Shown here: one piece after another, positions 1 through 44,834 of the stretch
How positions within the stretch are numbered: the first letter of the stretch is position 1
Layout: the number at the start of each line of letters is the position of its first letter
DNA from: Candidatus Woykebacteria bacterium RIFCSPLOWO2_01_FULL_43_14
GTDB taxonomy: Bacteria; Patescibacteriota; Microgenomatia; Woykebacterales; 2-01-FULL-43-14
Length of the DNA stretch: 46,988 nt
Assembly (NCBI GenBank): GCA_001816835.1
Contig: MHDB01000026.1
Location: 10,312 to 57,299 of the forward strand
Direction of reading: 5' to 3'
The notes under the pieces: generated by a model
What the model was told of the DNA's origin: nothing
Databases searched by the model: none
The model's input: only the letters and a program-made list of their open reading frames with translations
Position numbers and translations under genes: made by a program

Positions 1-1216
1 TAAAAGTAATAAAACTTAACGTTAGTATTAGCAACACTGATCTTAGGTTGAATGAGGTAACGATCTTTAGTAAACCTGATACTGCGAGCATATTAAGGAC
101 TGGAATAAACATGGCGTAGTAGCGCGACTCGTAATGCCAATAGGTACCCATGAGTAGGGTCATGATAGAAATTAAACAAATGATGGGAAGGAAGAAATAC
201 TTACGTTTGTCTTGGATTTTATAAATCTCAATAAGACTGAAGATGATGACGGTGTAGGGTACTAATAAGTCTTTGTAGATGAAGGTATCCACGCTGTAAC
301 GGAAGTAGGAGAAGTTTACCTTCAGAAAATCCAGTAAACCATAGTTAAGCCAAGTACTTAAGTTGGGAGGGTTATCGTAATAGATCCTAAAGATGTTTTC
401 ATAAGGGAAATATTTTATCAGATACCCTAAGTAATGTTCTGTAGGTAAAAGAAAAGTTCCGAATAAGATAAAATTTCGGATAAAAAACCCACCACTAATG
501 AGTAAGGTTGAGGCTATGAATATCAAACCTGGTGTTACGAATCTGGGGATGTTTCTCCGATAATAAAAGAAAAGAATTAGAAAATAGACAAAGGGAAAAA
601 GAGCGCCCATTGGTTTTTGGAGGATTGCTAAGCCCGAAAGTATCCCGAGCCCAACCATTAGCTTAAGGGATAGCTTACCTTCCTGGGCTGACAAGATAGC
701 GCGATAACCTAAGTAGAAAATAATTAAGGAAAGTAGTGCGAGAAAAATGTCGCTAGTAATCCAGGTGGTCGAGTAGACGATTAGGCTTGAATTAAGTCCA
801 GTAAGGATGCTAGCAACTAGGGCAACCTTTTTGTTAAAGAGTTTTTGACCAAAGAAATAAGTGAGGGCTACCAAAGCCGTCAAAAAGATAGCGTTTGGAA
901 GACGAGCGGCAAATGGGGTAATACCCAAGAAGAAAAAAGAAATTGCTAGAAAGACGGGTTGCAAAATTGGCCACATGTCCTCGGGATGAGTGAGCGTGTT
1001 GTAGTTAATGTAGTGGAAAGCGAGGTAGTCGACACTAAAGCCTTTACCTGATAGAAGATTTCTGGCTACATTAGCGTAGTTGGCGTAATCGCCTCTTCCT
1101 ATGAAAGAATAAGTTGAGTTAATATAGACTAATAGCCCGAAGTACAGGAGCAAAAATAAACCGAGGGTGTATTTTTGGTTTAGAGCTTTAGTAAGTTTCT
1201 TGAGTGAATTGAACAT
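1..1216 (-). CDS. GT-C fold membrane glycosyltransferase, ArnT/PMT_2-like (GT39/83-like); C-terminus runs off the window
   Basis: Absent from the ORF track because it is open to the window edge. My minus-strand translation from ATG (complement 1214-1216) reads MFNSLKKLTKALNQKYTLGLFLLLYFGLLVYINSTYSFIGRGDYANYANVARNLLSGKGFSVDY... It is polytopic and hydrophobic throughout, with the first-loop D..Y..A..L..GKG pattern typical of PMT_2/ArnT-like enzymes. Confidence 0.6.
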   Translation of the reverse strand, partial: MFNSLKKLTKALNQKYTLGLFLLLYFGLLVYINSTYSFIGRGDYANYANVARNLLSGKGFSVDYLAFHYINYNTLTHPEDMWPILQPVFLAISFFFLGITPFAARLPNAIFLTALVALTYFFGQKLFNKKVALVASILTGLNSSLIVYSTTWITSDIFLALLSLIIFYLGYRAILSAQEGKLSLKLMVGLGILSGLAILQKPMGALFPFVYFLILFFYYRRNIPRFVTPGLIFIASTLLISGGFFIRNFILFGTFLLPTEHYLGYLIKYFPYENIFRIYYDNPPNLSTWLNYGLLDFLKVNFSYFRYSVDTFIYKDLLVPYTVIIFSLIEIYKIQDKRKYFFLPIICLISIMTLLMGTYWHYESRYYAMFIPVLNMLAVSGLLKIVTSFNLRSVLLILTLSFITF

Positions 1217-1913
1217 GATAAATAAAGATCACCAAAGTAAGCAACTGAAATATTTTAACATCTACCAACCCCACCTGTACACTGATTTGAATAATTATAA
1301 CTTAAAGCTTGCGAGTAGGGTTAAAAACTCCATCCAACTAAGTCCGGGTCAAAAGATTTTAGAAGTAGGCGCTGGGGCAGGTAGGTTTAGCCTTCCCCTA
1401 AAGTCCTTGGGCGTTGAAGTAGAGGCTTTGGATTTTTCTGAAGTGTTGCTCGATGAGTTAAAAAAGAAAGACCCCCAGATAAAAGTTATCAGATCCGATA
1501 TTGATGAATTAGACGACAAGGATAAATACGACACGGTGGTTGGTTTTTATGTTTTGCACCACTTGGAAAACTTAGAAAAAAGTCTTGCAAGTATGTTTCG
1601 AGTCCTTAAAAATGGTGGTGAAATATGTTTTGTCGAACCAAATCCTAACAACCTTTTATACTATATTCAACCGTTTGTTTCCAAGAATATGAGTTGGAAT
1701 GAAGAAAAAGGTTTCTTGAAAATGCGCTCTGATTATTTAAAAACTGAATTTGAAAAAGCAGGTTTTACCGATTTTAAGATAACTAAATTTGGTTTCTTCC
1801 CACCCTTTGTGGTTAACACGTCATTGGGTCTGAGATTGGATAACTTATTAGAAAAATTTCCTCCATTTAAGCCGTTTCTTCCATTCCTCCTAATCCGAGC
1901 GGGCAAAGGCTGA
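1215..1913 (+). CDS. class I SAM-dependent methyltransferase
   Basis: Motif I ILEVGAGAGRFS, followed by an acidic EALDFS and a VLHHLEN post-motif. ATG at 1215 (MINKDHQ...) is preferred over the track's GTG at 1167, which lies inside the divergent gene. The two start codons overlap as CATG. Confidence 0.8.
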   Translation: MINKDHQSKQLKYFNIYQPHLYTDLNNYNLKLASRVKNSIQLSPGQKILEVGAGAGRFSLPLKSLGVEVEALDFSEVLLDELKKKDPQIKVIRSDIDELDDKDKYDTVVGFYVLHHLENLEKSLASMFRVLKNGGEICFVEPNPNNLLYYIQPFVSKNMSWNEEKGFLKMRSDYLKTEFEKAGFTDFKITKFGFFPPFVVNTSLGLRLDNLLEKFPPFKPFLPFLLIRAGKG

Positions 1914-1928
1914 TTCGAAAATAGTCTG

Positions 1929-1946: not shown

Positions 1947-3425
1947 TCATTTTCTTTTCAAAACGACAGTAGCATCCTTGTCAAAAACTACTTCATACCC
2001 TGGTAGACTTTTGACGTAAGTTAAGACCTCATCAAACTTCCCACTCGCTGGTCTCCAGTGAAAAGCGTTTTTGGATAAAATTATGTAGTCCACATCCGGG
2101 ACAGCGTAGTCTTGTATTGGGTCACTATCTTGTAGGTCTCCTCGGGGCTCATTGACCGCGAAAGAAGGATGGGGGTACATATAAATCTTTTTTCTCAAAG
2201 CTAAATGGGGCAGGAGTCCAGATTGAGTAGCCACGGAGATATTTGGGTCTGACGGAATCAGCGCTAAGGCTTGGTTGATGGTGACAACTCCAGCGGAAGT
2301 TTGATAAAAATTTGGAGTCAAAAGTTTGTAAAGGGGCATTTGATAATAAACACCGATCAGTATAGATACTAGGATAGTTAAAGATAGATAAAAACGGTAG
2401 AAATAGATCTTATTGGCAACAAACCGTTTCGCGATCTTTATTTTTTCAGCTAATTTAACTAGGTTTTCTAACCCCAAGACTTCTCCAAAACCCAAAATTG
2501 GTCCCTGATTGGCCGAGTAATGCATCCAGGGAGCCCATCTTTGAGTGACTGGGGAAGTAAATCTCGCCAATAAAAATGGAGCTACTATAAATAGGTAAGA
2601 GAGAGAAAGTAATGGCAGAAGTCCGAAGGAGCTAAAAAGTGAAGTAAGGGTTTTGGTTTTCTCAATTGGGATAAAGAAATCTTTGATCAAACCAATAGGA
2701 TTTAGAAATTTAGAATTTTGCGATTCTACGAGATAGGTGTAGGGCTGACCGTGTAAAAAGAAAGGCATGATCTGATAAATTACTAGGTAGAAATAAACAA
2801 GTGAGACCGCTGCGGTGATCAGACCTATCTTCCTATCCTTTCTCATAAAGAATAGATAAAGACCCAAGGCGAAAGTGAAAGTCGGGACATCCTCTTTGGA
2901 AAAAAGTGCGGCTACTAGAAAAATAAAATAGGGCAACCATTTTCTTTTATATGCAAACCAGAGGGTAAAGGAGATAAAGACACTACTGAGCGTTGCCCCA
3001 TGAAAAGGAAAAATGGCGGCGGACTGGAAGCCGTAAAAAAGTAAGTAACCACTGACTAGCAGGAGAGCGCTCAAGGTGTCTTTTAACCTTTCCTTGGCAA
3101 ACCAGTAGAGGGGTAGAGCACTCAAGACTACTGCGGTTGTCTGAACAATGATTAGCACCGAAGCCGAGCTCCAGATTTTGTAAAGTAGTGATATCCAAAA
3201 AAAATGGACTATAAAATGATCGCCGAAGATGTTGAAGGCCTTAAAAGTGTTCCCGTAACCAAAAATATCACCTTGAGAAAGATACCAGACGTGTTGGGCG
3301 TAAATTGCCAGATCAGCGTCCGTGGTGTTGAATTGGTAATGAAGAGTCAAGGAAAGGAAAAGATAGACAAATAAAAAAAGCCCTAAGACTATATAGATCG
3401 GGTTTTTCCCAAGGTAGGTTAACAT
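1947..3425 (-). CDS. DUF2079-family polytopic membrane protein (predicted GT-C-like)
   Basis: 492 aa and multi-TM. Motifs FGDHFIVHFFW, FPFHG and SKEDVP parallel LGDHFHPI, DFHE and VKEDMP in the clear DUF2079 paralog at 23207-24724. It has a soluble C-terminal tail. Confidence 0.65.
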   Translation of the reverse strand: MLTYLGKNPIYIVLGLFLFVYLFLSLTLHYQFNTTDADLAIYAQHVWYLSQGDIFGYGNTFKAFNIFGDHFIVHFFWISLLYKIWSSASVLIIVQTTAVVLSALPLYWFAKERLKDTLSALLLVSGYLLFYGFQSAAIFPFHGATLSSVFISFTLWFAYKRKWLPYFIFLVAALFSKEDVPTFTFALGLYLFFMRKDRKIGLITAAVSLVYFYLVIYQIMPFFLHGQPYTYLVESQNSKFLNPIGLIKDFFIPIEKTKTLTSLFSSFGLLPLLSLSYLFIVAPFLLARFTSPVTQRWAPWMHYSANQGPILGFGEVLGLENLVKLAEKIKIAKRFVANKIYFYRFYLSLTILVSILIGVYYQMPLYKLLTPNFYQTSAGVVTINQALALIPSDPNISVATQSGLLPHLALRKKIYMYPHPSFAVNEPRGDLQDSDPIQDYAVPDVDYIILSKNAFHWRPASGKFDEVLTYVKSLPGYEVVFDKDATVVLKRK

Positions 3426-3448: not shown

Positions 3449-5392
3449 ATGCCCCTTCTTAGAAAGATTTTATCCTTGAAATTTTACCTTTTACTAGCTT
3501 TACTAGTAGTGGTCTTTTATTGGCCTTTGATTGCTAACTTTAACTCTCTTACTTTTGGAAAAGACTTGGCTAGTAATTGGATGTTTGCTTTTTACACCAA
3601 ATATAATTTTTGGGAGTATGGTCAGTATGCTTTGTGGAACCATCAGTTTTTAAGTGGTTTTCCGATGGACACTAGCAACTTAGCTGCGATTTTTTATCCC
3701 CCGCATTGGCTTTTTATCTTTTTACCATTAAAGCTTTCTTTCAATCTCCTAACCTTAGCCCATGTCTATCTAATTGGGGTGGGAGTGTTTATCTTGTGTA
3801 AGTCAGAGTTTCGCCTATCTAACAAAAGTGCGTTCTTTGCCGCCATTTCGGTTATGCTCTCGCCAAAAATCTTCAATCATAATGACTTGGGGCATTTTAA
3901 TCTAGTTGAATCAATTCCGTGGGTAATCCTTAGCCTTATGTTTTTCCTAAAAGCAATTCGTACTAATAAACTTTACTTTGCTTTGGTTAGCGGCGTATTT
4001 CTGTCACTTTCCATCTTGGTTTTTTCCATTTTCTATATCTATGCCCTTTTTTGTTTGGGCTTTGCCACGCTTGTTATAACGTCCACAAGACTGCTCAACA
4101 AAGAAAAATTTTGGGTTCCTATAGTACATCTAATTACCAGTGTAGTGTTCTCATTAGGATTAAGTGGGGTCTTTCTCCTGCCATTTTTGCAGTTTTCCTC
4201 GCTTTCTCTTCGCTCGAAATTAGGTTTTTGGGAAGGCGCTTTTCCGTCTATCTACAAAGATACTCTCGCTCAGCTGTTTTACCTCTTTCCCCATAAATAT
4301 CATGACTCCGAGACACTTATCTATATTGGGGTATTTGTTTTGGGGTTAGCTCTAGTTGGGCTTTGGAGCTTCAGAAAGAGAAAAGAAGTTTGGATACTGG
4401 GGTTGATCGCAATGTTCTCGTTAAGTGTTTCGTTTGGCGCGAATGAAATTTTTTACAAAATATACTATGTGCTTCTCTCTGTATTTCATTTCATGCGTGC
4501 CCCTTTGAGAATCTGGATTTTGTTTATTATCAGTATGGGGATTTTGAGTGGTTTTGGAATGGAATATTTAACAACCCGATTTTCTCGACTTAAGAATTAT
4601 CTATTTGTGGGACTGACAGTATTGACGCTGATTACTTTTGTGATCTATGCCAAAGATTATTTTCACTTAGTTGATTACGATAAAGAAGAATCAAGACTTT
4701 TAGATATCATTCCTAATGATGGGAATCGCGTCTATTGTTTGAACAATTGTTTGTTTACACCAGAAGTAATGAAAAAAGGTTACCAGTTGGCCAGTGGTGG
4801 GGAAGTGGTTATGCTTAAGAATTATTATGATTACGTAAGGGCAGCGGGGGGTTATAAGTTTGACGGGTACTCCCTTTCCGTTCCGCCGTATCAAATATTT
4901 GGTGAAGAGAGTATCTATTTTGAAAAACAAAGCCCAAATCCAGAACTTTTGGGCAAGCTAAATATTAAATACGTTGTCGCCCCTTATGAGTTAATAAACC
5001 CTGGTTTAAAACAAATAGGATTGGAAGGTAGATATTTCGTGTACGAGAATTTGGCGGTTTTACCAAGATCTTACCTTGAAAATTCCTTAACACCCCTAAT
5101 CATCAAAAAATATACTCCTAACGAAGTGACTGTTAGCTTAACAGTGGGGCAAGATGAGAGGTTAGTATTAGCAGATTTGTATTATCCAGGATGGAAAGTT
5201 TTTGATAATGGACTGAGGAAAGAAATTGAGGCAAAGGATAACGTTGTTAGAGCGGTTAATCTAGAAAAGGGTACTCATGAAGTCACTTTCCGATACGAAT
5301 CTGATTTAGGCAAAATAGGATTATTGCTAAGTTTGTTAAGTCTTGTCTTTTTTCTAGGTGTGAGTTATAGAAGATTGAAGTTACGCTTCTAG
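3449..5392 (+). CDS. YfhO-family GT-C membrane glycosyltransferase
   Basis: 647 aa and polytopic. The N-terminus has [19 protein letters not shown]. The C-terminus has [13 protein letters not shown]...[14 protein letters not shown] followed by a final TM, which is the characteristic YfhO family tail. Confidence 0.7.
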
Positions 5393-6337
5393 GGCTAGGT
5401 CAGCATCAACCATCATTTTGACTAACTCTTCGAAGGTGACGGAAGGTGTCCAACCAAGTTTCTTTTTTGCCTTTGAAGAGTCTCCAACCAACAGGTCTAC
5501 CTCAGCCGGCCGGAAAAATCTTGGGTCGACTTTTACGTAGTCTTTGTAATCTAGACCGACATGCCCGAAAGCGAGCTCACAAAATTCCTTGACACTATGT
5601 GTCTTCCCAGTGGCTATGACATAGTCATCTGGTTTATCTTCTTGGAGCATTAGGTGCATCGCCTTAACGTAGTCTCCGGCGTAACCCCAGTCTCTCTTGG
5701 CTTCTAGATTACCTAGAGACAAATCGTTGACCTTTCCCAGTTTGATTTTGGCGATGGTATTAGTAATTTTCCGAGTTACGAATTCAAGCCCTCGGCGAGG
5801 AGATTCGTGATTAAAAAGAATACCGTTGCAGGCAAACATTTCATAACTCTCTCTGTAATTGACAGTCATGTAGTGTCCATAAGCCTTGGCACTGCCGTAA
5901 GGCGAACGAGGATGGAAAGGTGTCTCCTCAGTTTGGGGAACTTCTCTGACTTTGCCAAACATTTCTGAAGAAGATGCTTGATAGAACTTGATCTTTTTGT
6001 TTACCAGCTTAATTGCTTCAAGTAATCTGACAACCCCGAGTCCAGTAATTTCACCAACATTTACGGGTTGGTTCCAAGATAATGCCACGAAACTGATGGC
6101 GCCTAGGTTATATACTTCGTGAGGCTGAGTTACTTCCAGAGCGGCGACTAGAGATGATTGATCGAGCAGATCGCCTTCGATGAGATCAATGAAAGGAAAG
6201 TTTTGTTTGATTTTTTCAATCTTGGGATTATTTTGCCCGCGAACTAGTCCGTAAACCTTATAATTAAGAGAGTTTAAATGCTCGGCCAGGTACTGACCGT
6301 CTTGACCAGTAATGCCTGTAATCAATGCTGTTCTCAT
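5381..6337 (-). CDS. gmd: GDP-mannose 4,6-dehydratase
   Basis: [21 protein letters not shown]..., [19 protein letters not shown] and NHESPRRG are the canonical Gmd SDR motifs. Confidence 0.92.
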
Positions 6338-6343
6338 TACATA

Positions 6344-6352
6344 AGTCTAACA
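6344..6352 (-). promoter_or_regulatory. extended -10 (TGT-TAGACT) 6 nt upstream of the gmd ATG
   Basis: The reverse complement of 6344-6352 is TGTTAGACT. The spacer is TATGTA, followed by ATG. Confidence 0.4.
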
Positions 6353-6407
6353 TAGAAATTATTCTTTCGTCAAAAGGTTCTCGTAATCAGGGATTATGGC
6401 TCAGATT

Positions 6408-6416
6408 TGGTATACT
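6408..6416 (+). promoter_or_regulatory. extended -10 (TGG-TATACT) 10 nt upstream of ATG 6427
   Basis: Read from the sequence. It supports 6427 rather than 6325 as the true start. Confidence 0.4.
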
Positions 6417-6426
6417 TAGTTCGCTA

Positions 6427-7962
6427 ATGGTAAACTTAATTCGAAAAAACCCTACTGCAAGTTGCCTCTGTTTACTTCTTGTCTTTTCTCTTTGGAAGGT
6501 TATAAATACAAACGCAGGGATTGTTTCCCTTGAGCCTGACGAAGCAAACCATATTGAGGTAGTCCGTTCTCTTAGGGAATCTTTTATCCCAAGATATTTC
6601 GGTATCCCTTTTTTCTACGGACCGCCACTTTTTATGTATCTTAGTCTCCTAGTCTCTTTTTTCACCAGGGATGACTTTTTATCCGTTAGGCTAGTCTCAC
6701 TTCTTATGGCGACCCTTACATCGGTGGTTATTTTTTTCTATCTAAGGGAAAAAGTTAATACTATCGTTGGGTTAATAGGCGGTGCTTTTTATAGCTTAGC
6801 CCCATTGATTGTTTTTTATTCTCGGGTCGGACTGATCGAAACAACGCTTGGTTTTTTCAGCTTTTTGTTTTTCTACCTTTATGAAAAAGCAATAAACCAA
6901 AAGAGATATAGTTTGTTTTTGTTAGCTGGTGTCACTTTAGGTTTGGCTCTCCTAACTAAACTGACGGCTTTGGTTTTATTTCTTATCCCAGGGTTGTATA
7001 TACTGCTAAAACTTATTATGGTCTTTAGGAAAAAGGAGCCCTTAGATGCCCACGTTTTCCTCGGGACAATTTTAACGGGTTTAATTGCTGGTAGCATTGT
7101 TTTGCCTATACTTAGTTTTTATTACTTCTCTGAGAGCGTTTTTTTCAAAGAACAGGTCAAATATATTCTAAGCTACGGACCTAAAGCCGTCTCACTTGGG
7201 GAGATTGTTTTGGGTAGCGAAAAGTTTGTACGGATGTACTCTTGGGGAACACTACTATTCCTCCCGTTTGGTTTGGTGAGTGTAGCAAAAAACAAAAAGT
7301 TTCTTTTATTCAACCTAAGCTTTTTAAGTTTGCTTTTTGTCTTGCTGCGTAACCCTTTGTCAGTCGAAACTCTTCGATACTATGTTTTCTTCACCCCCTT
7401 TTTGTCGATTCCTTTAGCAGTAGGGGTGTGGCATGCTCTGAGGTTTGTGAGGTATAGACCTTTAATGTTAGTTATTTTTATCTCACTGCTGTTACCTTTT
7501 AGCGCCAAGGCTTTTCTTGGTTCAACTCATAGTGCAATCAAAGACACCGCACTATACTTGAAAGAAACTGCCCAGGATAAGTGGATTTATTATAATTATT
7601 GGCCGACCACCTTTGTTGTTTATACTGCTAACTTTAAAGGAACTTGGCTTAGTGGGAATAAGTTTGATACAGCGGCTTTCGCTGGTGGCGTGGGTAGCAA
7701 GTTCGAAAAAATAGACCAGCCTTCTTTAGCCACTCTAAAGAGTGATGGGGGTATCGTTGTCCTCCGGGACCCGTTTATTTTCGGAGAAAAATTTGGCCGA
7801 AAGGCTCTGGGGGAGATTATTAGCCAAAAAAGTGTAAAATTAGCTGAGTTTACCGACACAACGGCTTACTACCCACACCTTTTGGCAGGGGAACGTTTTA
7901 GTGTTTATCAAGTGACTCCTAACGATCTTGAAGGAGTGAACGAAACTGATTATGTTGAATAA
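6427..7962 (+). CDS. ArnT/PMT_2-like GT-C membrane glycosyltransferase (paralog of 11019-12596)
   Basis: Motifs EPDEANHIEVVRSL, FYSRVGLIETT and LLTKLTALVLFLIP align with EPDTVTHIEIVNNF, FYSRMGLIEMT and ILTKYTALIFCLVP in the paralog. The start is trimmed to ATG 6427 (MVNLIRKNP) because the track start at 6325 overlaps gmd. Confidence 0.7.
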   Translation: MVNLIRKNPTASCLCLLLVFSLWKVINTNAGIVSLEPDEANHIEVVRSLRESFIPRYFGIPFFYGPPLFMYLSLLVSFFTRDDFLSVRLVSLLMATLTSVVIFFYLREKVNTIVGLIGGAFYSLAPLIVFYSRVGLIETTLGFFSFLFFYLYEKAINQKRYSLFLLAGVTLGLALLTKLTALVLFLIPGLYILLKLIMVFRKKEPLDAHVFLGTILTGLIAGSIVLPILSFYYFSESVFFKEQVKYILSYGPKAVSLGEIVLGSEKFVRMYSWGTLLFLPFGLVSVAKNKKFLLFNLSFLSLLFVLLRNPLSVETLRYYVFFTPFLSIPLAVGVWHALRFVRYRPLMLVIFISLLLPFSAKAFLGSTHSAIKDTALYLKETAQDKWIYYNYWPTTFVVYTANFKGTWLSGNKFDTAAFAGGVGSKFEKIDQPSLATLKSDGGIVVLRDPFIFGEKFGRKALGEIISQKSVKLAEFTDTTAYYPHLLAGERFSVYQVTPNDLEGVNETDYVE

Positions 7963-17756: not shown

Positions 17757-17762
17757 ATTGGA

Positions 17763-36514: not shown

Positions 36515-37665
36515 GAATTCACATATTGCATACGGGATTTGTTTCCAAAACTTCCATGAGTGGTGGAGATCAGCTGATTTTTGATATCGTCTCACGACTT
36601 CCCAAAGAGTGGGAATTTGTGGTTATCACCCCGGAGTTTGCCAAAGTTTTTTGGAAAACTGTGTCTCACCCCTATCTAGAGTTTCGGTATCTACCGAGTA
36701 ATAGATTTGATTTTCGGGGTGACCCATTTTCTACTTTTTGGTCCTACGTTATCCGGGCTTGGCAGACTTATCAAATTCTTAAAAGGGAGAGAGATATTAA
36801 GGTAGTTTATTCCTGTTCAGACGTTGCATACGCTGATGTTTGGCCGGCTTTTCTGATTGCCCGCACTGAAAAGCTAAAATGGATTTCTCGGGTTTATCAT
36901 GTCCTCTTACCGCCCGGTGTTCGTCAAGGGAATCTATTTATCAACTTAGTCGCGGTTTGGCTTCAGAGATTGAGTTTTTGGTCAATGAAAAAAAGAAGTT
37001 GGGTAACTCTCGCTTTGAATGAGAAGTTGCGCCTTGAACTTATAGAACTTGGTTTTTCCGAGTCTAAAACCAAGATTTTAGGAGCTGGGATTGACTTTAA
37101 TTATATCCATAACTATAAACCATCAAAAAAGTATGAGTATGAAGTTGTCGCTTTAGGGAGAGTGGCGGCTGTGAAGGGTATTTTTGACACTGTCAAAATC
37201 TGGAAAGAAGTGCATAAATATAATCCAAAATGGAAACTTTGCTGGATTGGTCAGGGTGACCCAGGTACTACCCAACAAATACGACACAAGATAAAAAAAG
37301 AAGGTCTCCAAAACTCGTTCCTGATGAAGGGTTTTTTGGAAAAAAGAGTTGTCCTGGACATTTTTAAGAGCGCCAAGGTTTTTATTTGTCCTGATCACGA
37401 AAACGGCTGGGGTTTGGCTGTAAGTGAGGCGATGTCCGCGTCCCTCCCAGTGGTGTCCTACAGTATTGATATTTTCGGCAGTGTATATAAAAAAGGATTC
37501 CTGTCATGCCCACTGTTCGATACTCAAGCTTTTGCTGCCAATTTAATCCGGGTTCTTGAGGACAAGAATTTGAGAGATAAATCAGCGCGACAGGCTCGTG
37601 AACAGGCTTCACAATTTGATCTGGATAAGGTAGTTAGGGATTTTGCGAAGATACTTGGGAGTTAA
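36511..37665 (+). CDS. GT4 family glycosyltransferase
   Basis: Motifs MSGGDQLIFDI and ENGWGLAVSEAMSASLPVVSY. TTG start preceded by AAGGAGAAAGGGA. Confidence 0.78.
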   Translation: MRIHILHTGFVSKTSMSGGDQLIFDIVSRLPKEWEFVVITPEFAKVFWKTVSHPYLEFRYLPSNRFDFRGDPFSTFWSYVIRAWQTYQILKRERDIKVVYSCSDVAYADVWPAFLIARTEKLKWISRVYHVLLPPGVRQGNLFINLVAVWLQRLSFWSMKKRSWVTLALNEKLRLELIELGFSESKTKILGAGIDFNYIHNYKPSKKYEYEVVALGRVAAVKGIFDTVKIWKEVHKYNPKWKLCWIGQGDPGTTQQIRHKIKKEGLQNSFLMKGFLEKRVVLDIFKSAKVFICPDHENGWGLAVSEAMSASLPVVSYSIDIFGSVYKKGFLSCPLFDTQAFAANLIRVLEDKNLRDKSARQAREQASQFDLDKVVRDFAKILGS

Positions 37666-38773
37666 TTTTTTTGTAGGCGCTGACGAGGCGTTCGCCGTAA
37701 CTTTCCCAGGTATACTGCTGCGCTTTGTGTCTAGCCGCTAGACTCATTTTTTGGCGAAGTTCAGTTTTGTCATAAAGGGTTTGGATTTTCTCTCCGATAA
37801 ATCTAGAATCGCCTGCGGGTATAATGAACCCTTCATCCCCATCCACCACTACTGAGCCACTAGCCTGAGTTGTGATGACAGGGAGGCCACAGGCAAGGGC
37901 TTCATAGGTCACTAGTGCGCTTCCTTCTTCAAGTGAGGGAAACACAAAGACATCAGCTTGTTGGTATAGAGGTAAGGTCGGGGTAAAACCGGCAAAAGTA
38001 ATGCTGGGATCTTGTCGGAAGCGTGTCAGGAACTCTACGATTGTGGGGTCGATCTGACCAACTATTGTGAGATGGGCGTCTTTCAACTGTAGCTCTTTCC
38101 AGGCTTCCAAGAGATATGGGATGCCTTTGCGAAATCCGACTTGCCCAACAAAAAGAACTTCAAAACGTCCTCCTGATTTTTGGCCTGGTTTGAAACCCTT
38201 TGTATCAACTCCAAATGGAAGCTGGATAAGTTTTTCTGTGGGAACATTGTTCTCAACCATGCTTTGATACGAAAAAGGAGAGGGCACAGTAATATAGTCG
38301 CACTCTCTGAATTCTTGAAGAAGCTTTTTCATATTTAGGGAAAGCATTTGATATGAGTTCAGACCTCGTTTGCGGAACTCCTTACTTAGGATTTCAACTT
38401 GGGTGGTGGGGTGAGACGAAGCTCTTTCAATCACAATTTTCGCTCCTTTTCGCTTAAACTTGCGTAAAGAAAGCAAGCTGTGACCATTCCAGCCGTGGAA
38501 AATATCTACTGGGTGTGCTTGAAATGACACCAGAAGATCGTGGTAGTTGTCCTTTAAAAACCACTGGTAAACACTTGGAACTAATCGAATATTTTCGATA
38601 AATGAGGAGTTGGTGCTTTTGATATAGCTTTGGGGAATATCGCGGAGTCGGTACGAAGAGCAATACACTTTGTCCAAGTTCTGATGGTCGTAGACCCCTT
38701 TTACCGCATGATACGAGGTTGTTCCGATACCCGACCCCCCAAATTGAGTAGCAACACTATACGCAACCTTCAT
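37634..38773 (-). CDS. GT4 family glycosyltransferase (opposite strand, converging on and overlapping the previous gene by 32 nt)
   Basis: Motifs GQVGFRKG and EEGSALVTYEALACGLPVITTQASGSVVVDGDEGFII. Confidence 0.85.
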   Translation of the reverse strand: MKVAYSVATQFGGSGIGTTSYHAVKGVYDHQNLDKVYCSSYRLRDIPQSYIKSTNSSFIENIRLVPSVYQWFLKDNYHDLLVSFQAHPVDIFHGWNGHSLLSLRKFKRKGAKIVIERASSHPTTQVEILSKEFRKRGLNSYQMLSLNMKKLLQEFRECDYITVPSPFSYQSMVENNVPTEKLIQLPFGVDTKGFKPGQKSGGRFEVLFVGQVGFRKGIPYLLEAWKELQLKDAHLTIVGQIDPTIVEFLTRFRQDPSITFAGFTPTLPLYQQADVFVFPSLEEGSALVTYEALACGLPVITTQASGSVVVDGDEGFIIPAGDSRFIGEKIQTLYDKTELRQKMSLAARHKAQQYTWESYGERLVSAYKKINSQVSSQNP

Positions 38774-38789: not shown

Positions 38790-38815
38790 TGTACTAACTT
38801 TTAGTTAAAAAGACT

Positions 38816-38828
38816 CACTCCGGGAGTG
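38816..38828. repeat. left palindrome CACTCC-G-GGAGTG
   Basis: Read directly from the sequence. Confidence 0.8.
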
Positions 38829-38836
38829 ACTTATAC

Positions 38837-38864
38837 TTGACACATAGGAAAATGTGGTTAAAAT
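38837..38864 (+). promoter_or_regulatory. sigma70-like promoter: TTGACA, 16-nt spacer, TAAAAT; the -10 ends 8 nt before ATG 38873
   Basis: TTGACA lies at 38837-38842 and TAAAAT at 38859-38864. There is no SD before the ATG. Confidence 0.45.
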
Positions 38865-38872
38865 TAAACTCG

Positions 38873-39544
38873 ATGCCCAGAAGAAAAACTATCTTCGCTA
38901 TCGGCGAGTACTACCATATTTTTAATAGAAGCCTTTATAAAAGACCCATTTTCGTAAATAATCCAGACTGTAAACGAGCAATTACTGCCCTCTCCTATTA
39001 TCGTTACCCGAACCCACCGCACAGGTTGTCTTATTACTTATCATTTGGGGTAGATAAGCGCGAAGATATTTTGACTAAACTAGCAAAGAAAGACAAACTT
39101 GTAGAAATAATAAGTTATTGTTTCATGCCCAACCACTACCACCTGCTTCTTAAACAAAATCTAGAAAATGGGATTTCAAATTTTATTAGACTTTTCCAAA
39201 ATAGTTATACAAGGTATTTTAACACCAAATATAGATCTGCAGGTTATTTATTCGAAGGACAGTTTAAATCCAAGTATGTTGAAGATGAAAACTATTTGCT
39301 CCACCTAAACCGCTACATTCATTTAAACCCATATTCCTCCCACGTAATCAAGGATCTAAATGAAATAATTACCTACCCCTATTCCTCCTTCTCGGCCTAC
39401 TTGAAAGAAAGTATTGATTCTTTTGTAAGTCCAGAAATAATAACGTCACAGTTTAAAAACAAAGTTGAATATAGAAATTTCGTTTTAGATTATGCTGATC
39501 ATCAAAAGGAGTTACAGAGAATAAAGCACCTAGTACTGGAATGA
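38873..39544 (+). CDS. HUH-Y1 transposase, RAYT / IS200-like (Y1_Tnp family)
   Basis: Motifs MPRRKTIFAIGEYYHIFNR, an HUH motif in CFMPNHYHLLL, and a catalytic Tyr context in LNRYIHLNPY. The start is trimmed to ATG 38873. Confidence 0.8.
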   Translation: MPRRKTIFAIGEYYHIFNRSLYKRPIFVNNPDCKRAITALSYYRYPNPPHRLSYYLSFGVDKREDILTKLAKKDKLVEIISYCFMPNHYHLLLKQNLENGISNFIRLFQNSYTRYFNTKYRSAGYLFEGQFKSKYVEDENYLLHLNRYIHLNPYSSHVIKDLNEIITYPYSSFSAYLKESIDSFVSPEIITSQFKNKVEYRNFVLDYADHQKELQRIKHLVLE

Positions 39545-39569
39545 ACGTACCGATATGTTAGCTATAAAA

Positions 39570-39582
39570 CACTCCCGGAGTG
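39570..39582. repeat. right palindrome CACTCC-C-GGAGTG (reverse complement of the left copy)
   Basis: Read directly from the sequence. Confidence 0.8.
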
Positions 39583-39605
39583 ATAGATGACATTTAAATA
39601 AGAAG

Positions 39606-39638
39606 GGCGGCTGCTTTCTTTCAAGGAAGACAACCGCC
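39606..39638. terminator. putative bidirectional stem-loop between convergent genes
   Basis: GGCGGCTG (39606-39613) pairs with CAACCGCC (39631-39638), giving 7 of 8 Watson-Crick pairs (G-U on the minus-strand RNA). The minus-strand transcript continues into CTTCTTATTT. Confidence 0.35.
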
Positions 39639-39642
39639 GTAG

Positions 39643-40002
39643 TTAATGAAGAATCCAGCCTGTGATGGTTTTCTGGTTCCTTCGGAAATTCTCTTCCGAT
39701 GCAGCCCGAATTGCTTCATGATCATCGGGTTTAGGAGGAGGCAGAATTCCCAGCTTCTTAAGCACAATCTGCATCAAGAAGCGTAGTAAAGTTCCTGCTG
39801 GGATCTCTATCCCGCAAACAAGCTTTTCAGGGGTTTTCAGAAAGACCGAACTAGTTCCGACAACTACCCCGTAATGAGAAGGAGATTCCTGAGCTTGCTG
39901 AACCCACATCCGATTGGCTAAGTCGCCGGTTTCAGCAAATTTACTAAGACGCTCTCTGTGCCAAAGTTTTGGCACACGTTTTCCAGACAACCAAAATCTC
40001 AT
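39643..40002 (-). CDS. hypothetical protein (119 aa), no family recognised
   Basis: ATG at complement 40000-40002 is preceded by a strong SD, AAGGAGGTG, with a 6-nt spacer. Composition is visibly GC-richer than the surroundings. Confidence 0.55.
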   Translation of the reverse strand: MRFWLSGKRVPKLWHRERLSKFAETGDLANRMWVQQAQESPSHYGVVVGTSSVFLKTPEKLVCGIEIPAGTLLRFLMQIVLKKLGILPPPKPDDHEAIRAASEENFRRNQKTITGWILH

Positions 40003-40008
40003 GATCTG

Positions 40009-40035
40009 CACCTCCTTGAAACTGCGAACATTATA
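40009..40035 (-). promoter_or_regulatory. TATAAT -10 (complement 40030-40035) plus SD AAGGAGGTG (complement 40009-40017): a leadered transcript, unlike its neighbours
   Basis: Read from the reverse complement: ..CCAGTATAATGTTCGCAGTTTCAAGGAGGTGCAGATCATG. Confidence 0.45.
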
Positions 40036-40096
40036 CTGGATCGACAACCTTTAATCAGGCTATAGGTTTACAATGGTCTAAAAAGAGTTGGTGAGG

Positions 40097-40110: not shown

Positions 40111-41232
40111 ATGAAAGTGGCGATTGTGCATGACTACTTAAACCAATACGGCGGGGCTGAGCGGGTGCTTGAAGCGCTGCATGAACTGTGGCCCGACGCT
40201 CCCGTATACACAAGCATGTATGATCGGAAGTTGATGAAGTCGTACGGGTTTGATGATACTGGTTGGGATATTCGCGCTTCGTTTATGCAGAAAATCCCTA
40301 TGCGTGCTTCACTTCCTAGGTCTTACCTTACCTTTTTGTATCCCCAGGCGTTTGCGTCGTTTGATCTGCGTGGGTATGATGTTATCATTTCTAGCTCAAG
40401 TTACGCGTCGAAAAATATCACCAAGCCTTCAGGAAGTATCCATATTTGTTACTGCCATACCCCGCCTCGGTTTTTATATGGATTCGATCAAGAAACAACC
40501 CTAGCAGACATGACGTGGTGGGAGAAATTAGCTTCTAGAGTTTTTATTCCGTATTTACGAAGCCTTGATCAACAAGCAGCGCAGGCAGTAGACTTTTTTA
40601 TTGCCAATTCTGTGGTGGTTCAAAAGCGCATTAAAATGATTTACAAAAAAGATGCGCTAGTCATTTACCCACCAGTGGATACGCAGCGGTTTGAGAAAAA
40701 ACAGCAGCTTTCTAAAGAAATAGACAAACCCTACTTTCTGGTAATCTCCCGTTTAGGGGAGTACAAGCGCGTTGATTTGGTAATAGAAGCGTTTAATAAA
40801 CTTGGTACACCACTCAAAGTAATAGGGACGGGCCCTAGGCTTAGCCATCTTAAATCCTTAGCACAAGCGAACATTGAATTTTTGGGTCGACTTTCGGATG
40901 AAGAGACGACGGCCTACTTACAAAACGCTGAAGCTTTGATTTTTCCGACTGAGGAGGATTTTGGGATTACGCCAGTAGAAGCACTGGCTGCAGGTAAAGC
41001 GGTGATTGCTTATAAAGGAGGAGGCGCTCTTGAAACTTTGGATCAGAAAACAGCGTTGTTTTTTTCTCCCCAAACCGCCCAGGCTTTAGTAGAAGCAGTT
41101 AAAAATTTTGACCCCTCGTTGTATAATCCATATACGTCCAAAAAACGAGCAAGTAAATTTTCCCGAGAGTTATTTAAAACTAGTCTTCGAAAATTCGTGG
41201 AGGATAATTTAAAATCCGATGAACACAAATGA
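40111..41232 (+). CDS. GT4 family glycosyltransferase
   Basis: Motifs MKVAIVHDYLNQYGGAERVLEAL and EEDFGITPVEALAAGKAVIAYKGGGALETL. Confidence 0.85.
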   Translation: MKVAIVHDYLNQYGGAERVLEALHELWPDAPVYTSMYDRKLMKSYGFDDTGWDIRASFMQKIPMRASLPRSYLTFLYPQAFASFDLRGYDVIISSSSYASKNITKPSGSIHICYCHTPPRFLYGFDQETTLADMTWWEKLASRVFIPYLRSLDQQAAQAVDFFIANSVVVQKRIKMIYKKDALVIYPPVDTQRFEKKQQLSKEIDKPYFLVISRLGEYKRVDLVIEAFNKLGTPLKVIGTGPRLSHLKSLAQANIEFLGRLSDEETTAYLQNAEALIFPTEEDFGITPVEALAAGKAVIAYKGGGALETLDQKTALFFSPQTAQALVEAVKNFDPSLYNPYTSKKRASKFSRELFKTSLRKFVEDNLKSDEHK

Positions 41233-42316
41233 TATATATGCAGTAATTATGGCTGGGGGTGGTGGTTCCAGACTCTGGCCAAAATCCCGTAATAGACGGC
41301 CAAAGCAGTTCCTCAAACTGATTTCGTCTAAAACCATGCTCCAGGAAACAGTGGATAGGATAAGGTCGCTTGTTAATATAGAAAATGTGTTCGTGGTAAC
41401 CTCGGCCCAGTATGTTAATGAGGTTAAAAGTGAGATTAACGGCCTGCCCGAAGAAAATATTTTGACTGAGCCGCAGGCCAAAAATACTGCTATAGCTATT
41501 GGTCTTGCTGCGGCCAAAATTTATAAACTTAATCCCAAAGCAGTTATTGCCACCTTAGCTTCTGATCATCTCATCAAAAATCCACGCGAGTTCAGATCGA
41601 CTCTGCTCAGAGCCCTAAAGGCTGCTAGTAAAGGAAACTATCTAGTGACTATAGGTATTCATCCCACTGAACCTCACATTGGGTTTGGTTATATCCATAG
41701 CAACGGTCTCAAATTTAAAATAGATTCAAAGCCAGTATTTAATGTTGAGAGCTTTACAGAGAAGCCTAATTTGGTGACCGCTCAAGCTTATATTGCTACA
41801 GGACTGTATTTCTGGAATGCCAACATAAATGCTTACTCTGCTAGCTCAATTCTTGAGGCATTTAAGACAAATATGCCCAAACTTTACAAAGGGTTAACTA
41901 GAATAAGAGATTCTTTTGGTAAATCCGACTATCAGGAAGTGGTTACTAGTGTCTATGAAAATGCTGAGAGTATTGCCATTGACACGGGTATTTTGGAAAA
42001 AGCTAACAATGTCTTGATGGTTCCAGGAGATTTTGGTTGGAGTGATATTGGCAGTTGGAAAGAGTTACACGAGCTGTCTCCTATCTCAGTTGAGGGTAAT
42101 GTTATGTTGGGTGACGAGTCAGGAGAGCATCTTTTTATTGATACCAAAAATTGCTTAATTCATAGCAGTGGTCGATTGGTGGCCACAATAGGTGTAGAAG
42201 ATTTGATTATCGTGGATACGGTTGATGCTCTTTTGGTTTGTCCCAAAGACCGTGCTCAAGAAGTAAAGAGTTTGGTCGAGAGGATCAAAAAAGAGAAAAG
42301 AGTTGAGTATCTCTAA
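41219..42316 (+). CDS. manC: mannose-1-phosphate guanylyltransferase
   Basis: Motifs IYAVIMAGGGGSRLWPKSRNRRPKQFL, ASDH, FTEKP and GWSDIGSW. 365 aa, with no fused cupin/PMI domain. Confidence 0.9.
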   Translation: MNTNDIYAVIMAGGGGSRLWPKSRNRRPKQFLKLISSKTMLQETVDRIRSLVNIENVFVVTSAQYVNEVKSEINGLPEENILTEPQAKNTAIAIGLAAAKIYKLNPKAVIATLASDHLIKNPREFRSTLLRALKAASKGNYLVTIGIHPTEPHIGFGYIHSNGLKFKIDSKPVFNVESFTEKPNLVTAQAYIATGLYFWNANINAYSASSILEAFKTNMPKLYKGLTRIRDSFGKSDYQEVVTSVYENAESIAIDTGILEKANNVLMVPGDFGWSDIGSWKELHELSPISVEGNVMLGDESGEHLFIDTKNCLIHSSGRLVATIGVEDLIIVDTVDALLVCPKDRAQEVKSLVERIKKEKRVEYL

Positions 42317-42317
42317 C

Positions 42318-42944: not shown

Positions 42945-42950
42945 GAAACA

Positions 42951-44834
42951 ATGAAATTTTTGGAAGTAACCTACTCAGCTTTCAAAAAAAGGCCATTTTT
43001 AAATCCAAAGCATCGTAAGGTCGTTAAAGTTATTGTAATATCGACTTTGATTTTGGTGCTTTTGGGCATACTTTACTTCCTGATTAGTTACCCACACGTT
43101 CAGTCAACTTACGCCGCAGTGAAAAAAACAGCTGAGCGAGCCAAGTCTCTTCAACAAAGCCTAAAAGATCAAGATGTGGTTGGCGTGCGGGAGCAATCGA
43201 TTTTGCTTCAGACTGATCTCAAGGAGACTAAAAAAGAAGTTGACTATTTCTGGGTACTAGGTTATATACCGATACTTAATTGGTACTATAGTGATGGTGT
43301 TCACCTACTCAATGCGGGGAGTATTTCAACAGAGGCTGCCGTAATAGCCTCAGATGCCTTGATCCCTTTTGCCGACAGTTTAGGTCTTCGGGGAGGCACT
43401 GATGACGGTAACGCTGAAGAAAAAGCCTCAAAGCTTGTCCAAATTATGCCCAAGATTCTTCCCGAGATAGATGTTCTCCAAGAAAAAATTACCCAAGTTA
43501 GGAAAGAAATTTCTCCGATTAACCCTAATATTTATCCAGAGCAAGTAGGCGGTATCAAGATAAAATCAGCTCTTAACACCTTCAAAGGATTAATTGAAAC
43601 AGCCAATAGTATAGCGCCAGAACTAAAACCGATTCTTACTATTTTGCCCAGCAGCCTGGGGGACCCTAAGCCCAAAACTTATATGGTTATCCTCCAAAAT
43701 GATGCCGAAATCCGTTCAACCGGCGGATTTATTACCTCAGTTGCTTACATAACACTCTCAAAAGGCAGGATTGTTTCGGTCAAGAGTGAGGATATTTACC
43801 GACTTGACGAAAGAATCAGGAATCACCCGGTAGCTCCTGAACAAATTAGAAAGTATCTTAAGCAAGAGAAACTTTTCCTAAGGGATACGAACCTTTCAGC
43901 CGATTTTGTGGTGTCTATGGATGCTTTCAACTCCTTATACCAATCCTCAGACGAAGTGGTGAGCTACGATGGTTTTATTGCCTTAGATACCAAATTTGTG
44001 GAAAAACTACTGAGTGTGACTGGACCGGTCACCACTGATGCTTACGGGGAGACTTTTTCGGCTGACCCTTCGGTGAATGGAATTTCAGACGTTGTTTATA
44101 AACTTGAGCTGTATTCTCAAAAGTTGCTTAGACAAACTGATGACCGTAAGGAACTCTTAGGTGATTTGTTAGATAGCCTTATGAAAACGGTTCTTAGGTC
44201 CCCGACCGAAAAATGGCAACCTTTGATACAAGTTACTATCGAGTCTGGTCAAGAGAAACATCTGATGGTCTATTCTTTTGACAAAAACACCCAAACCTTG
44301 ATTGAAAAGTATAATCTGGCTGGAAGAATTATCGATTATGATGGAGACTATTTACACGTCAATGAAAACAACTATGGTGGTCTGAAATCTAACCTTTTCG
44401 TAAACGAGGTGTTTGAGCAAGAAATAGATATCGGAAACGATGGCGAAGTAACTAAAACTGTTAAGATCCACCTAAACAACCCTTTTCGGGACGATGGTTG
44501 GCTCAACGGGACTTACAATGATTACCTGCGGCTTTATGTCCCTCAAGGTTCTAAATTGGATAAAGCGAGCTCAAGCACTTCAGCAATTGATACCTCGACT
44601 GACTTTGGTAAAACAGTTTTCACGACATTCGTGAGCGTTGGCCCCGAAAGTAGTAAAACAGTTGAGATTACCTATAAGTTACCGTTCAAAGTGAAAAAAG
44701 GCCAGCCATATAAGATGATGGTTCAAAAACAGCCTGGCGCTAAGTCTCATCAAATGATTGTTAAAATTAACGGCAATCAAGTAGAGAATACTAAACTAGC
44801 AACAGATAAAGAATTCAGCTTCAAGATTCCCTAA
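42951..44834 (+). CDS. DUF4012-family protein (N-terminal TM anchor plus large extracytoplasmic domain)
   Basis: One TM (VIVISTLILVLLGILYFLISY) and the family-typical block YMVILQNDAEIRSTGGFITSVAYITLSKGRI. Confidence 0.7.
   Translation: MKFLEVTYSAFKKRPFLNPKHRKVVKVIVISTLILVLLGILYFLISYPHVQSTYAAVKKTAERAKSLQQSLKDQDVVGVREQSILLQTDLKETKKEVDYFWVLGYIPILNWYYSDGVHLLNAGSISTEAAVIASDALIPFADSLGLRGGTDDGNAEEKASKLVQIMPKILPEIDVLQEKITQVRKEISPINPNIYPEQVGGIKIKSALNTFKGLIETANSIAPELKPILTILPSSLGDPKPKTYMVILQNDAEIRSTGGFITSVAYITLSKGRIVSVKSEDIYRLDERIRNHPVAPEQIRKYLKQEKLFLRDTNLSADFVVSMDAFNSLYQSSDEVVSYDGFIALDTKFVEKLLSVTGPVTTDAYGETFSADPSVNGISDVVYKLELYSQKLLRQTDDRKELLGDLLDSLMKTVLRSPTEKWQPLIQVTIESGQEKHLMVYSFDKNTQTLIEKYNLAGRIIDYDGDYLHVNENNYGGLKSNLFVNEVFEQEIDIGNDGEVTKTVKIHLNNPFRDDGWLNGTYNDYLRLYVPQGSKLDKASSSTSAIDTSTDFGKTVFTTFVSVGPESSKTVEITYKLPFKVKKGQPYKMMVQKQPGAKSHQMIVKINGNQVENTKLATDKEFSFKIP

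Follow-up and report, generated by a model that had tools for sequence, protein, structure and literature searches.

Nine predicted GT-C glycosyltransferases and a conserved Wzy_C-ArnT fusion in a probable cell-envelope glycan cluster of Candidatus Woykebacteria

Multi-component transmembrane glycosylation, as described by Rismondo, Gillis and Gründling, relies on a GT-A glycosyltransferase that makes a C55-phosphate-linked sugar, a flippase of the GtrA or Wzx type, and a GT-C glycosyltransferase of the PMT_2 or YfhO type that transfers the sugar outside the membrane (PMC8035078). One variant is the soluble GT-A enzyme GacI, which works with the Wzx-type flippase GacK and the PMT_2-type GT-C GacL (PMC8035078). 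Here we analyze a stretch of 46,988 nucleotides (nt) from a metagenome-assembled genome (MAG) of Candidatus Woykebacteria (contig MHDB01000026.1, positions 10,312 to 57,299; hereafter the window), in which glycosyltransferase (GT) genes of these and other families are packed between positions 1 and 44834. We consider it probable, from gene content and family assignments, that most of the cell-envelope glycan machinery of a monoderm bacterium of the candidate phyla radiation (CPR) is encoded here as its main cluster, built as a Wzx/Wzy core with layered multi-component transmembrane glycosylation modules.

The GT2-Wzx-PMT_2 triad of the GacI/GacJ/GacK/GacL system, which builds the side chain of the Streptococcus pyogenes Group A carbohydrate, recurs in the window at 9057, 9781 and 11019. 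The closest described variant is the GacI/GacK/GacL type, and the small GT2s of the window likewise have no transmembrane (TM) helices. With the CsbB/GtcA/YfhO, GtsABC, CsdAB/CD/EF and Gac systems the cluster shares the GT-C families PMT_2 and YfhO; those systems, however, have one GT-C each, whereas this cluster has nine, and it adds two GT-Cs of the DUF2079 family and one fused to a Wzy_C domain. Unlike the Gac and GtrA systems, it includes neither a GacJ-like partner nor a GtrA-type flippase, and its backbone is not an ABC-exported rhamnan. The second described counterpart is the Wzx/Wzy route to secondary cell wall polysaccharide, exopolysaccharide (EPS) or O-antigen, such as the Bacillus anthracis secondary cell wall polysaccharide model and the EPS locus of Bifidobacterium longum 105-A, with which the window shares a phosphoglycosyl transferase (PGT), cytoplasmic GTs, Wzx, a protein of the Wzy_C family and genes for sugar nucleotides, wecB among them. 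In the B. longum locus the PGT gene is directly followed by a DUF4012 gene, as in the window (PMC5412050). Méheust et al. (2019) found the DUF4012 family enriched in CPR and Gram-positive bacteria (PMC6744442) and linked it to the Bifidobacterium EPS locus, after the priming transferase (PMC6744442, PMC5412050). In contrast to such pathways, the window has no gene for Wzz or another polysaccharide co-polymerase (PCP), a tyrosine kinase or a LytR-CpsA-Psr (LCP) protein; its 13 cytoplasmic GTs are far above the needs of one ordinary repeat unit, and its Wzy_C protein bears an additional ArnT-like domain. The original prediction, made from the DNA letters, had proposed an undescribed system that was not a conventional O-antigen or capsule locus. 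It was right about GT-C chemistry outside the membrane but overstated the unconventionality: the combination of a GT-A, a Wzx-type flippase and a PMT_2-type GT-C had already been described (GacI/K/L; PMC8035078), and the conserved core consists of a conventional small PGT, GT4s, Wzx and a Wzy_C protein.

We scanned every open reading frame (ORF) of the window against Pfam and NCBIfam. Among the 39 genes at 1-44834, 25 encode GTs (nine GT-C, 11 GT4, four GT2 and one PGT by Pfam), exactly the numbers originally predicted, and these genes cover 70.7% of the bases; glycan-related genes altogether amount to 33 of the 39, or 92% of the bases. The same scans recovered gmd, wecB, manC, both Wzx genes, the Wzy_C domain, the PGT and DUF4012, all of which had been named beforehand (Table 1). 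Most gene junctions overlap by 4-38 nt, in agreement with the dense packing first reported, but the packing is broken by non-glycan genes at 17079-19080 and 38837-40047. Two long operons stand out, one of nine genes (6325-17053, its first gene 6325-7962) and one of 13 genes (20999-37665, opened by two GT4 genes), beside a further gene run from 40111 onward. Across these two operons the GT-C genes show translational coupling to genes for GT4, GT2 and Wzx proteins, which argues for a joint function. All pairs of GT paralogues are at most 33% identical, which rules out recent tandem duplication as the source of the GT density; the density is therefore old, and each GT probably has its own specificity.

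The cluster is real but does not end where the original prediction placed its left limit: it continues for about 5 kb past the left end of the window, to a total of roughly 50 kb. The source population is known from a Candidatus Woykebacteria MAG from the Rifle aquifer, and several ENA assemblies, as well as GCA_001816795.1, contain this DNA too. A locus of the same organism (L073, 12210-17681) holds the missing part: the remainder of the first PMT_2 gene (its C-terminal part lies beyond the window start, and the protein has 536 amino acids (aa) in the NCBI assembly), then a third small GT2 of 236 aa, a 639-aa protein and a DegT-type aminotransferase, followed by ATP-citrate-lyase-like genes. 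The 639-aa protein matched no Pfam family and showed no profile similarity to the YfhO-like alignment. As a side observation, the aminotransferase together with gmd would fit a GDP-4-amino-4,6-dideoxyhexose.

By sequence and structure prediction, all nine polytopic proteins are GT-C folds. The Asp of the first outer loop, aligned with the corresponding ArnT segment, is present in all seven PMT_2 domains. For the YfhO-like protein at 3449, with about 12 TM helices and a C-terminal beta-rich outer domain, we obtained an AlphaFold2 model with a predicted local distance difference test (pLDDT) of 90.5 and a predicted TM-score (pTM) of 0.92, and its 38 best Foldseek matches in the PDB are all GT-C enzymes (STT3, PglB, AglB, AftD, AftA, Emb, ArnT, DPY19, Pmt4 and PimE). 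The model of the DUF2079 protein at 23198 (pLDDT 95.9) likewise has GT-C enzymes only as its top 20 matches (STT3, DPY19, ALG9, AftA, PglB and ArnT). Across 57 homologues of this family D56, H91, H163 and E199 are invariant, the Asp lying just after the first helices. The assignment of the second DUF2079 protein, at 1947, rests on its Pfam match of 157.9 bits and its 31% identity to the modelled paralogue. PDB searches by sequence returned no relative for the YfhO-like or DUF2079 proteins. Pfam, the ArnT alignments and the Foldseek results on the AlphaFold2 models, all of which point to GT-C, rule out that the polytopic proteins are transporters; transporters entered the Foldseek lists only at E>0.1 with TM-scores of about 0.1. 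The GT-C nature originally proposed for these proteins is thus borne out. Beyond PMT_2/PMT, DUF2079, YfhO and Wzy_C, the GT-C proteins of the window matched no Pfam family, with neither GT87/DUF2029 nor Arabinose_trans among the hits.

The most distinctive part of the cluster, and one of its new features, is the conserved Wzy_C-ArnT fusion encoded at 28520. It joins a Wzy_C domain of the O-antigen ligase/polymerase superfamily (residues ~1-430; 72.2 bits, cutoff 31.7) to an ArnT-like PMT_2 domain (~445-949; PMT_2 65 bits, PMT 65 bits). Its C-terminal half matches ArnT (5EZM) at E=1e-14 as a single sequence and at 1.6e-42 over ~340 residues when a profile of 45 sequences is used; the same profile search of the PDB also brought AglB and STT3 for this half. 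Both the DEGxY motif of the first loop and the FEKPP motif align with ArnT. The fold and motifs of ArnT (GT83, the lipid A 4-amino-arabinose transferase) are thus shared, but the protein remains below the equivalog level of that enzyme (NCBIfam 83 bits, cutoff 567), is fused to Wzy_C, and no lipid A genes are in view. Indeed, the Pfam scans found no lipopolysaccharide (LPS) or outer-membrane genes among the ORFs of the window, as had been predicted, and CPR bacteria lack LPS (PMC3812714). The N-terminal half is the better conserved one, with R171, D178, N180, H181, R226, H294, H345, E350 and E354 invariant in 45 homologues; of the DE pair in the ArnT-like half, the Glu (E479) is kept in 43 of the 45 and the Asp in 24, including this protein and its close relatives. 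More than 40 independent genomes and metagenomes encode the fusion as one ORF, which rules out an assembly or frameshift artefact. The protein is 100% identical to OGY31784.1 from a Candidatus Woykebacteria MAG, source annotations vary (hypothetical, 'O-antigen ligase family', 'GT39 family', 'bicarbonate transporter'), and we found no paper in the literature that describes it. A domain using polyprenyl-diphosphate-linked glycans and a domain using polyprenyl-phosphate sugars, placed in one polypeptide, suggest that steps on one acceptor may be coupled.

The donors for the GT-Cs could come from small soluble GT2s. The protein encoded at 9057 finds its best PDB match in the Pyrococcus furiosus dolichol-phosphate-mannose (Dol-P-Man) synthase (5MLZ, E=1e-31, residues 4-244), followed by GtrB and ArnC; for 32265 the best matches are ArnC (E=4e-23 to 4e-21, residues 4-222), then GtrB and Dol-P-Man synthase (DPMS). 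No TM helix is predicted in either protein, the catalytic domain being covered, and every NCBIfam equivalog score is far under its cutoff. By sequence they are closest to polyprenyl-phosphate sugar synthases, in accordance with the Ppm1/DPM1 likeness already proposed, and we regard them as candidate donor synthases. As to gene neighbourhoods, the first PMT_2 gene adjoins a small GT2 gene just outside the window, the fusion gene is separated from 32265 by one gene, and flippase a (9781) is placed between 9057 and the GT-C gene at 11019. Moreover, homologues of the YfhO-like protein carry PF09586, and in some of them (P0004, P0008) the same polypeptide also contains a GT2 domain; such fusions join a donor-making to a donor-using enzyme and support a functional pairing. 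No window ORF matched a GtrA-type flippase family, again as predicted. In the closest species-representative genome (L007), a gene of the LPG_synthase_TM family (MprF flippase-like; 14357-15316) stands between the small GT2 and a flavin adenine dinucleotide (FAD)-dependent oxidoreductase; it is a possible flippase for lipid-linked monosaccharides, and the window has no such gene. The FAD oxidoreductase of the window (32960-34222) is translationally coupled to the ArnC-like small GT2, keeps its position in L007 and in another relative, L071, and might modify a polyprenyl-phosphate sugar or the lipid carrier.

Relatives of the fusion were sought by scanning one genome per species, which gave 63 loci. 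Those that match over the full length mostly carry the labels candidate division WWE3, Patescibacteria group or Candidatus Saccharibacteria; matches from other phyla cover the PMT_2 half only. About 30 WWE3 and Patescibacteria genomes share a core with the order GT4-GT4-fusion-(Wzx)-GT4s-PGT-DUF4012-recO-glyS. Throughout WWE3 the GT4-GT4-fusion order is kept, there are WWE3 loci with a Wzx gene adjoining the fusion gene, and the orthologue of the GT4 gene at 40111 lies directly upstream of the PGT gene, with or without manC between them. The PGT-DUF4012-recO-glyS order is kept in ~30 loci, and DUF4012 is always paired with the PGT. In L007, whose fusion is 39% identical, the DUF2079-PMT_2 pair, fusion, GT2, small GT2, FAD oxidoreductase, GT4s, manC, PGT and DUF4012 retain their order, and an 89.5 kb Logan contig with a 50% identical fusion has both halves of the cluster in the same order, again with nine GT-C genes. 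The DUF2079-PMT_2 pair (23198/24711) is kept in L007 and L071, and the orthologue of the GT2 gene at 31366 follows the fusion gene in L007, L008 and L071. The genes are therefore co-localized in related genomes, as the original prediction implied, and not scattered. Several MAGs with a fusion of the Patescibacteria type and matching synteny (L007, L009, L065) are labelled 'uncultured Gammaproteobacteria' or 'Woesearchaeota archaeon', and are probably mislabelled or mis-binned.

The families, folds, motifs, operon coupling and conserved gene order are observed; the scheme that we build on them is inferred as regards the donors, the order of the steps, the pairing of flippases with substrates, whether Wzy_C polymerises or ligates, and what accepts the glycan (a wall polymer, a lipid or a surface protein). 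In the core, the small PGT (42303) would prime polyprenyl phosphate, and up to 13 cytoplasmic GT4 and GT2 enzymes would extend the lipid-linked oligosaccharide, drawing on GDP-mannose (ManC), a GDP-6-deoxyhexose derivative (Gmd) and UDP-ManNAc (WecB), the only donors that the window indicates. A Wzx-type flippase would carry the product outward, where the Wzy_C domain of the 949-aa fusion may polymerise the glycan or ligate it to an acceptor. In the modules, the soluble DPMS/ArnC-like GT2s (9057, 32265 and the third past the left end) would load single sugars on polyprenyl phosphate; a Wzx-type protein, with 9781 as the candidate, would probably flip these monosaccharide donors in the manner of GacK, and the nine GT-Cs, among them the ArnT-like domain of the fusion, would act on the outer face, where the transferred sugars would form branches or lengthen chains. 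The glycan was originally expected to be rich in mannose. This had been drawn from manC only; 6-deoxyhexose and ManNAc are indicated just as well, by gmd and wecB.

Several points weigh against this scheme. Nine GT-Cs for two or three donor synthases are more than simple one-sugar decoration needs, so that chain building outside the membrane fits as well as decoration. A small membrane protein like GacJ or DPM3 that could partner the soluble GT2s is not seen in the listed gaps; the genes leave hardly any room between them, and hyp134, a 134-aa ORF, has no predicted TM helix. The PDB profile search found no solved WaaL for the Wzy_C half, which may be a polymerase or a ligase. No Wzz or LytR_cpsA_psr match occurs among the window ORFs, though a chain-length regulator of the Wzz/PCP type or an LCP ligase could lie elsewhere in the genome, and the window contains no acceptor gene. 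Finally, the left operon (6325-17053) could form a separate pathway, initiated by an enzyme encoded elsewhere.

This last point leads to the alternative that survives best, a possibility we take seriously but doubt: two or three independent glycan pathways lying side by side, for example a wall-polymer decoration operon on the left and an EPS or capsule operon on the right. The non-glycan island at 17079-19080 divides the cluster, both Wzx genes belong to the left operon while the sole PGT gene is at the far right, and WWE3 genomes keep the right-hand core only. However, a relative at ~50% identity has the two halves next to each other with their order unchanged, and the right-hand operon, with no flippase of its own in the window, seems to depend on the left one.

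Unlikely, in our view, is that the cluster serves general O-glycosylation of S-layer, pilin or other surface proteins, with the Wzy_C domain acting as a PglL- or WsaB-like O-oligosaccharyltransferase onto Ser, Thr or Tyr and the PMT_2-type GT-Cs adding or extending sugars directly on proteins. The Wzy_C family holds polymerases, ligases and O-oligosaccharyltransferases (WaaL, PglL, Wzy). Weak NCBIfam matches of the fusion to 'putative O-glycosylation ligase' (39 bits) and of Wzx b to 'O-glycosylation flippase' (95 bits) point in this direction, yet ligase, O-oligosaccharyltransferase and polymerase are not separable by sequence within Wzy_C. The cluster of L071, a relative at ~50% identity, contains a sortase gene and a 389-aa PMT/PMT_4TMC gene that precede DUF4012 (17711-19572), which hints at a link to the anchoring or glycosylation of surface proteins in that lineage. 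In the window, by contrast, no S-layer, pilin or other acceptor protein gene is found, no GT-C protein has a PMT_4TMC domain, PMT (PF02366) matches three proteins only, and the NCBIfam Pmt equivalog scores 33 bits against a cutoff of 800; the protein O-mannosylation evoked in the original prediction fails on the missing PMT_4TMC domain and on this score. Kantor et al. (2013) described WWE3 genomes as GT-rich and suggested polysaccharides, glycoproteins or a glycosylated S-layer; they found no complete peptidoglycan pathway in these genomes (PMC3812714).

We hold it rather improbable that the cluster makes the principal wall polymer of Woykebacteria and WWE3 through a relay of GT-Cs outside the membrane, with a bifunctional fusion that would install a primer sugar from a polyprenyl-phosphate donor on the acceptor and then ligate or polymerise the polyprenyl-diphosphate-linked glycan onto that sugar. 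If true, one protein would couple two lipid-linked donor chemistries in a new way, and DUF2079 would gain its first assigned function.

The mycobacterial route from phosphatidylinositol mannosides (PIM) to lipomannan (LM) and lipoarabinomannan (LAM), with Ppm1 and PimE/MptA-C/Emb/Aft, resembles the cluster in its GDP-mannose supply and cytoplasmic GT4s; many GT-Cs for few donor synthases is the ratio typical of mycobacterial LM and LAM. A LAM-like lipoglycan or wall polymer, its chain built mainly outside the membrane by successive GT-Cs from polyprenyl-phosphate sugars, is nevertheless quite improbable: nine anciently diverged GT-Cs sharing two or three donor synthases, the presence of ManC and a DPMS-like GT2, and the room for another major polymer left by the reported lack of a complete peptidoglycan pathway in WWE3 (PMC3812714) speak for it, but the analogy, drawn in the original prediction, does not hold at the level of protein families (GT87/DUF2029 and Arabinose_trans are matched by none of the GT-Cs, and neither are the Emb/Aft families), nothing in the window indicates a phosphatidylinositol anchor, and the conserved core of PGT, Wzx and Wzy_C points to a polyprenyl-diphosphate-linked glycan, not a phosphatidylinositol-anchored one.

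Table 1. Features of the window, with positions, strand and supporting matches
Feature	Position	Strand	Evidence
GT-C no. 1, PMT_2	<1-1219	-	Pfam PMT_2 37.9 bits; first-loop Asp aligned with ArnT D55
S-adenosylmethionine (SAM)-dependent methyltransferase, candidate sugar methyltransferase	1215-1913	+	Methyltransf_23/11/25 ~60 bits
GT-C no. 2, DUF2079	1947-3425	-	Pfam DUF2079 157.9 bits; 31% identical to modelled paralogue 23198-24724
GT-C no. 3, distant YfhO family	3449-5392	+	Pfam YfhO 29.5 bits, C-terminal 80 residues only
GDP-mannose 4,6-dehydratase (Gmd)	5381-6337	-	TIGR01472 433.6 bits, cutoff 415
GT-C no. 4, PMT_2	6325-7962	+	PMT_2 55 bits, PMT 37 bits; first-loop PDEA motif
UDP-GlcNAc 2-epimerase (WecB), UDP-ManNAc supply	7952-9067	+	TIGR00236 463.6 bits, above equivalog cutoff
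GT2, small soluble, candidate polyprenyl-phosphate sugar synthase (DPMS/GtrB/GacI-like)	9057-9794	+	245 aa; no TM helix
MOP/Wzx-type flippase a	9781-11022	+	Polysacc_synt_3 51 bits, Polysacc_synt 50 bits; ~12 TM helices
GT-C no. 5, PMT_2	11019-12596	+	PMT_2 47.7 bits; first-loop Asp kept; 29% identical to 6325-7962
MOP/Wzx-type flippase b	12583-14028	+	Polysacc_synt_3 186.8 bits; NCBIfam MOP flippase 136 bits
GT2, cytoplasmic	14025-14891	+	Glycos_transf_2 134 bits
GT4	14881-15951	+	Glycos_transf_1 78 bits
GT4	15914-17053	+	Glycos_transf_1 115 bits
GT-C no. 6, PMT_2	19334-20911	-	PMT_2 28.8 bits
Two GT4 genes, starts 20999 and 22087	20999-23232	+	Glycos_transf_1 131.6 and 138.7 bits
GT-C no. 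7, DUF2079	23198-24724	+	DUF2079 216.9 bits
GT-C no. 8, PMT_2	24711-26240	+	PMT_2 30.8 bits; first-loop MDEA motif
Two GT4 genes, starts 26237 and 27352, directly upstream of fusion	26237-28536	+	Glycos_transf_1 149 bits, Glyco_trans_1_4 80 bits
GT-C no. 9, Wzy_C + PMT_2/PMT fusion	28520-31369	+	949 aa
GT2, cytoplasmic, 300 aa	31366-32268	+	Glycos_transf_2 78.6 bits
GT2, second small soluble, candidate polyprenyl-phosphate sugar synthase (ArnC/GtrB-like)	32265-32963	+	232 aa
FAD-dependent oxidoreductase, amine-oxidase/phytoene-desaturase superfamily	32960-34222	+	Amino_oxidase 90.7 bits; NCBIfam PRK07233 'hypothetical protein' 456 bits
Three GT4 genes	34219-35355, 35330-36514, 36511-37665	+	Glycos_transf_1 87-121 bits (range includes the gene at 37634)
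GT4	37634-38773	-	Glycos_transf_1, within the 87-121 bits of the four-gene group
GT4	40111-41232	+	Glycos_transf_1 89 bits
Mannose-1-phosphate guanylyltransferase (ManC), without phosphomannose isomerase domain	41219-42316	+	NTP_transferase 141 bits, ManC_GMP_beta-helix 80.6 bits
Small initiating PGT, 213 aa, one hydrophobic helix	42303-42944	+	Bac_transf 212.4 bits, cutoff 27
DUF4012 protein, N-terminal TM helix and large outer domain	42951-44834	+	DUF4012 87.4 bits; one TM helix
recO, housekeeping, right border	44849-45649	+	RecO_N/RecO_C
Glycyl-tRNA synthetase (glyS), right border	45655 to beyond window end (listed to 46986)	+	HGTP_anticodon, tRNA-synt_2b

Some further details concern individual genes of Table 1. 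Relative to two sister assemblies of the same population, one G is absent between 19347 and 19348 in the gene of GT-C no. 6, and the encoded PMT_2 protein therefore has 525 aa here, against 583 aa in L001, with the last 58 codons shifted into another frame at 19161-19333; the cause is either an assembly error or a variant of this strain in which the enzyme is shortened or inactive. ManC scores 311 bits with TIGR01479 over positions 1-353 of 467, and the PGT scores 266.7 bits with TIGR03025, over the catalytic domain only. None of the eleven GT4 enzymes reaches an NCBIfam equivalog cutoff, no phosphatidylinositol synthase is found in the window, and the DUF4012 protein has no PDB relative by sequence. 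The methyltransferase at 1215 is found in the same place in a relative (L070). Rfam and tRNA scans detected no tRNA or Rfam RNA in the window.

The island at 17079-19080, where GC content is slightly lower, encodes a membrane protein of 225 aa that belongs to the alkaline ceramidase family (47.8 bits, above cutoff), together with a zinc-ribbon protein (DUF6487), a DUF5678 protein and a retropepsin-like aspartyl protease. The first of these would place a lipid hydrolase within the envelope cluster, which may merit attention because the organism is thought to obtain lipids by scavenging. The second interruption holds an element (38815-39583) with an IS200/IS605-type Y1 transposase of 235 aa, inserted between two GT4 genes; the transposase weakly matches the REP-associated tyrosine transposases (41.6 bits, cutoff 80), and is flanked by inverted arms of 34 nt, each with the palindrome CACTCCGGGAGTG, a sequence absent from the rest of the window. 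Beside it lies the unassigned hyp134 (39643-40047, minus strand). The cargo at this position differs in relatives: L007 has a cupredoxin/CopC protein there, L071 a sortase.

Returning to the probable Wzx/Wzy core with its transmembrane glycosylation modules, the logic of each part is already known from work on Gram-positive wall polysaccharides; what is new is that a very small genome has so many GT-Cs and that a Wzy_C-ArnT fusion is conserved, the parts themselves being of known kinds. Our literature search found no paper on this cluster, on DUF2079 or on GT-C enzymes in Patescibacteria, and for S-layer glycosylation in CPR bacteria it yielded an archaeal paper only. The locus offers experimental handles in the fusion, which marks the lineage, in the compact GT2-Wzx-GT-C modules, and in DUF2079 and the distant YfhO branch, two GT-C families without a studied member or a solved structure. 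CPR bacteria, or Patescibacteria, have genomes of about 1 Mb and live attached to other cells, and to our knowledge their envelopes have hardly been characterized. That one glycan system takes up a conserved cluster of ~50 kb, or several percent of a genome of this size, would suggest that the surface glycan is central to CPR biology, where it may act in attachment to the host, in protection, or in replacing missing wall polymers.

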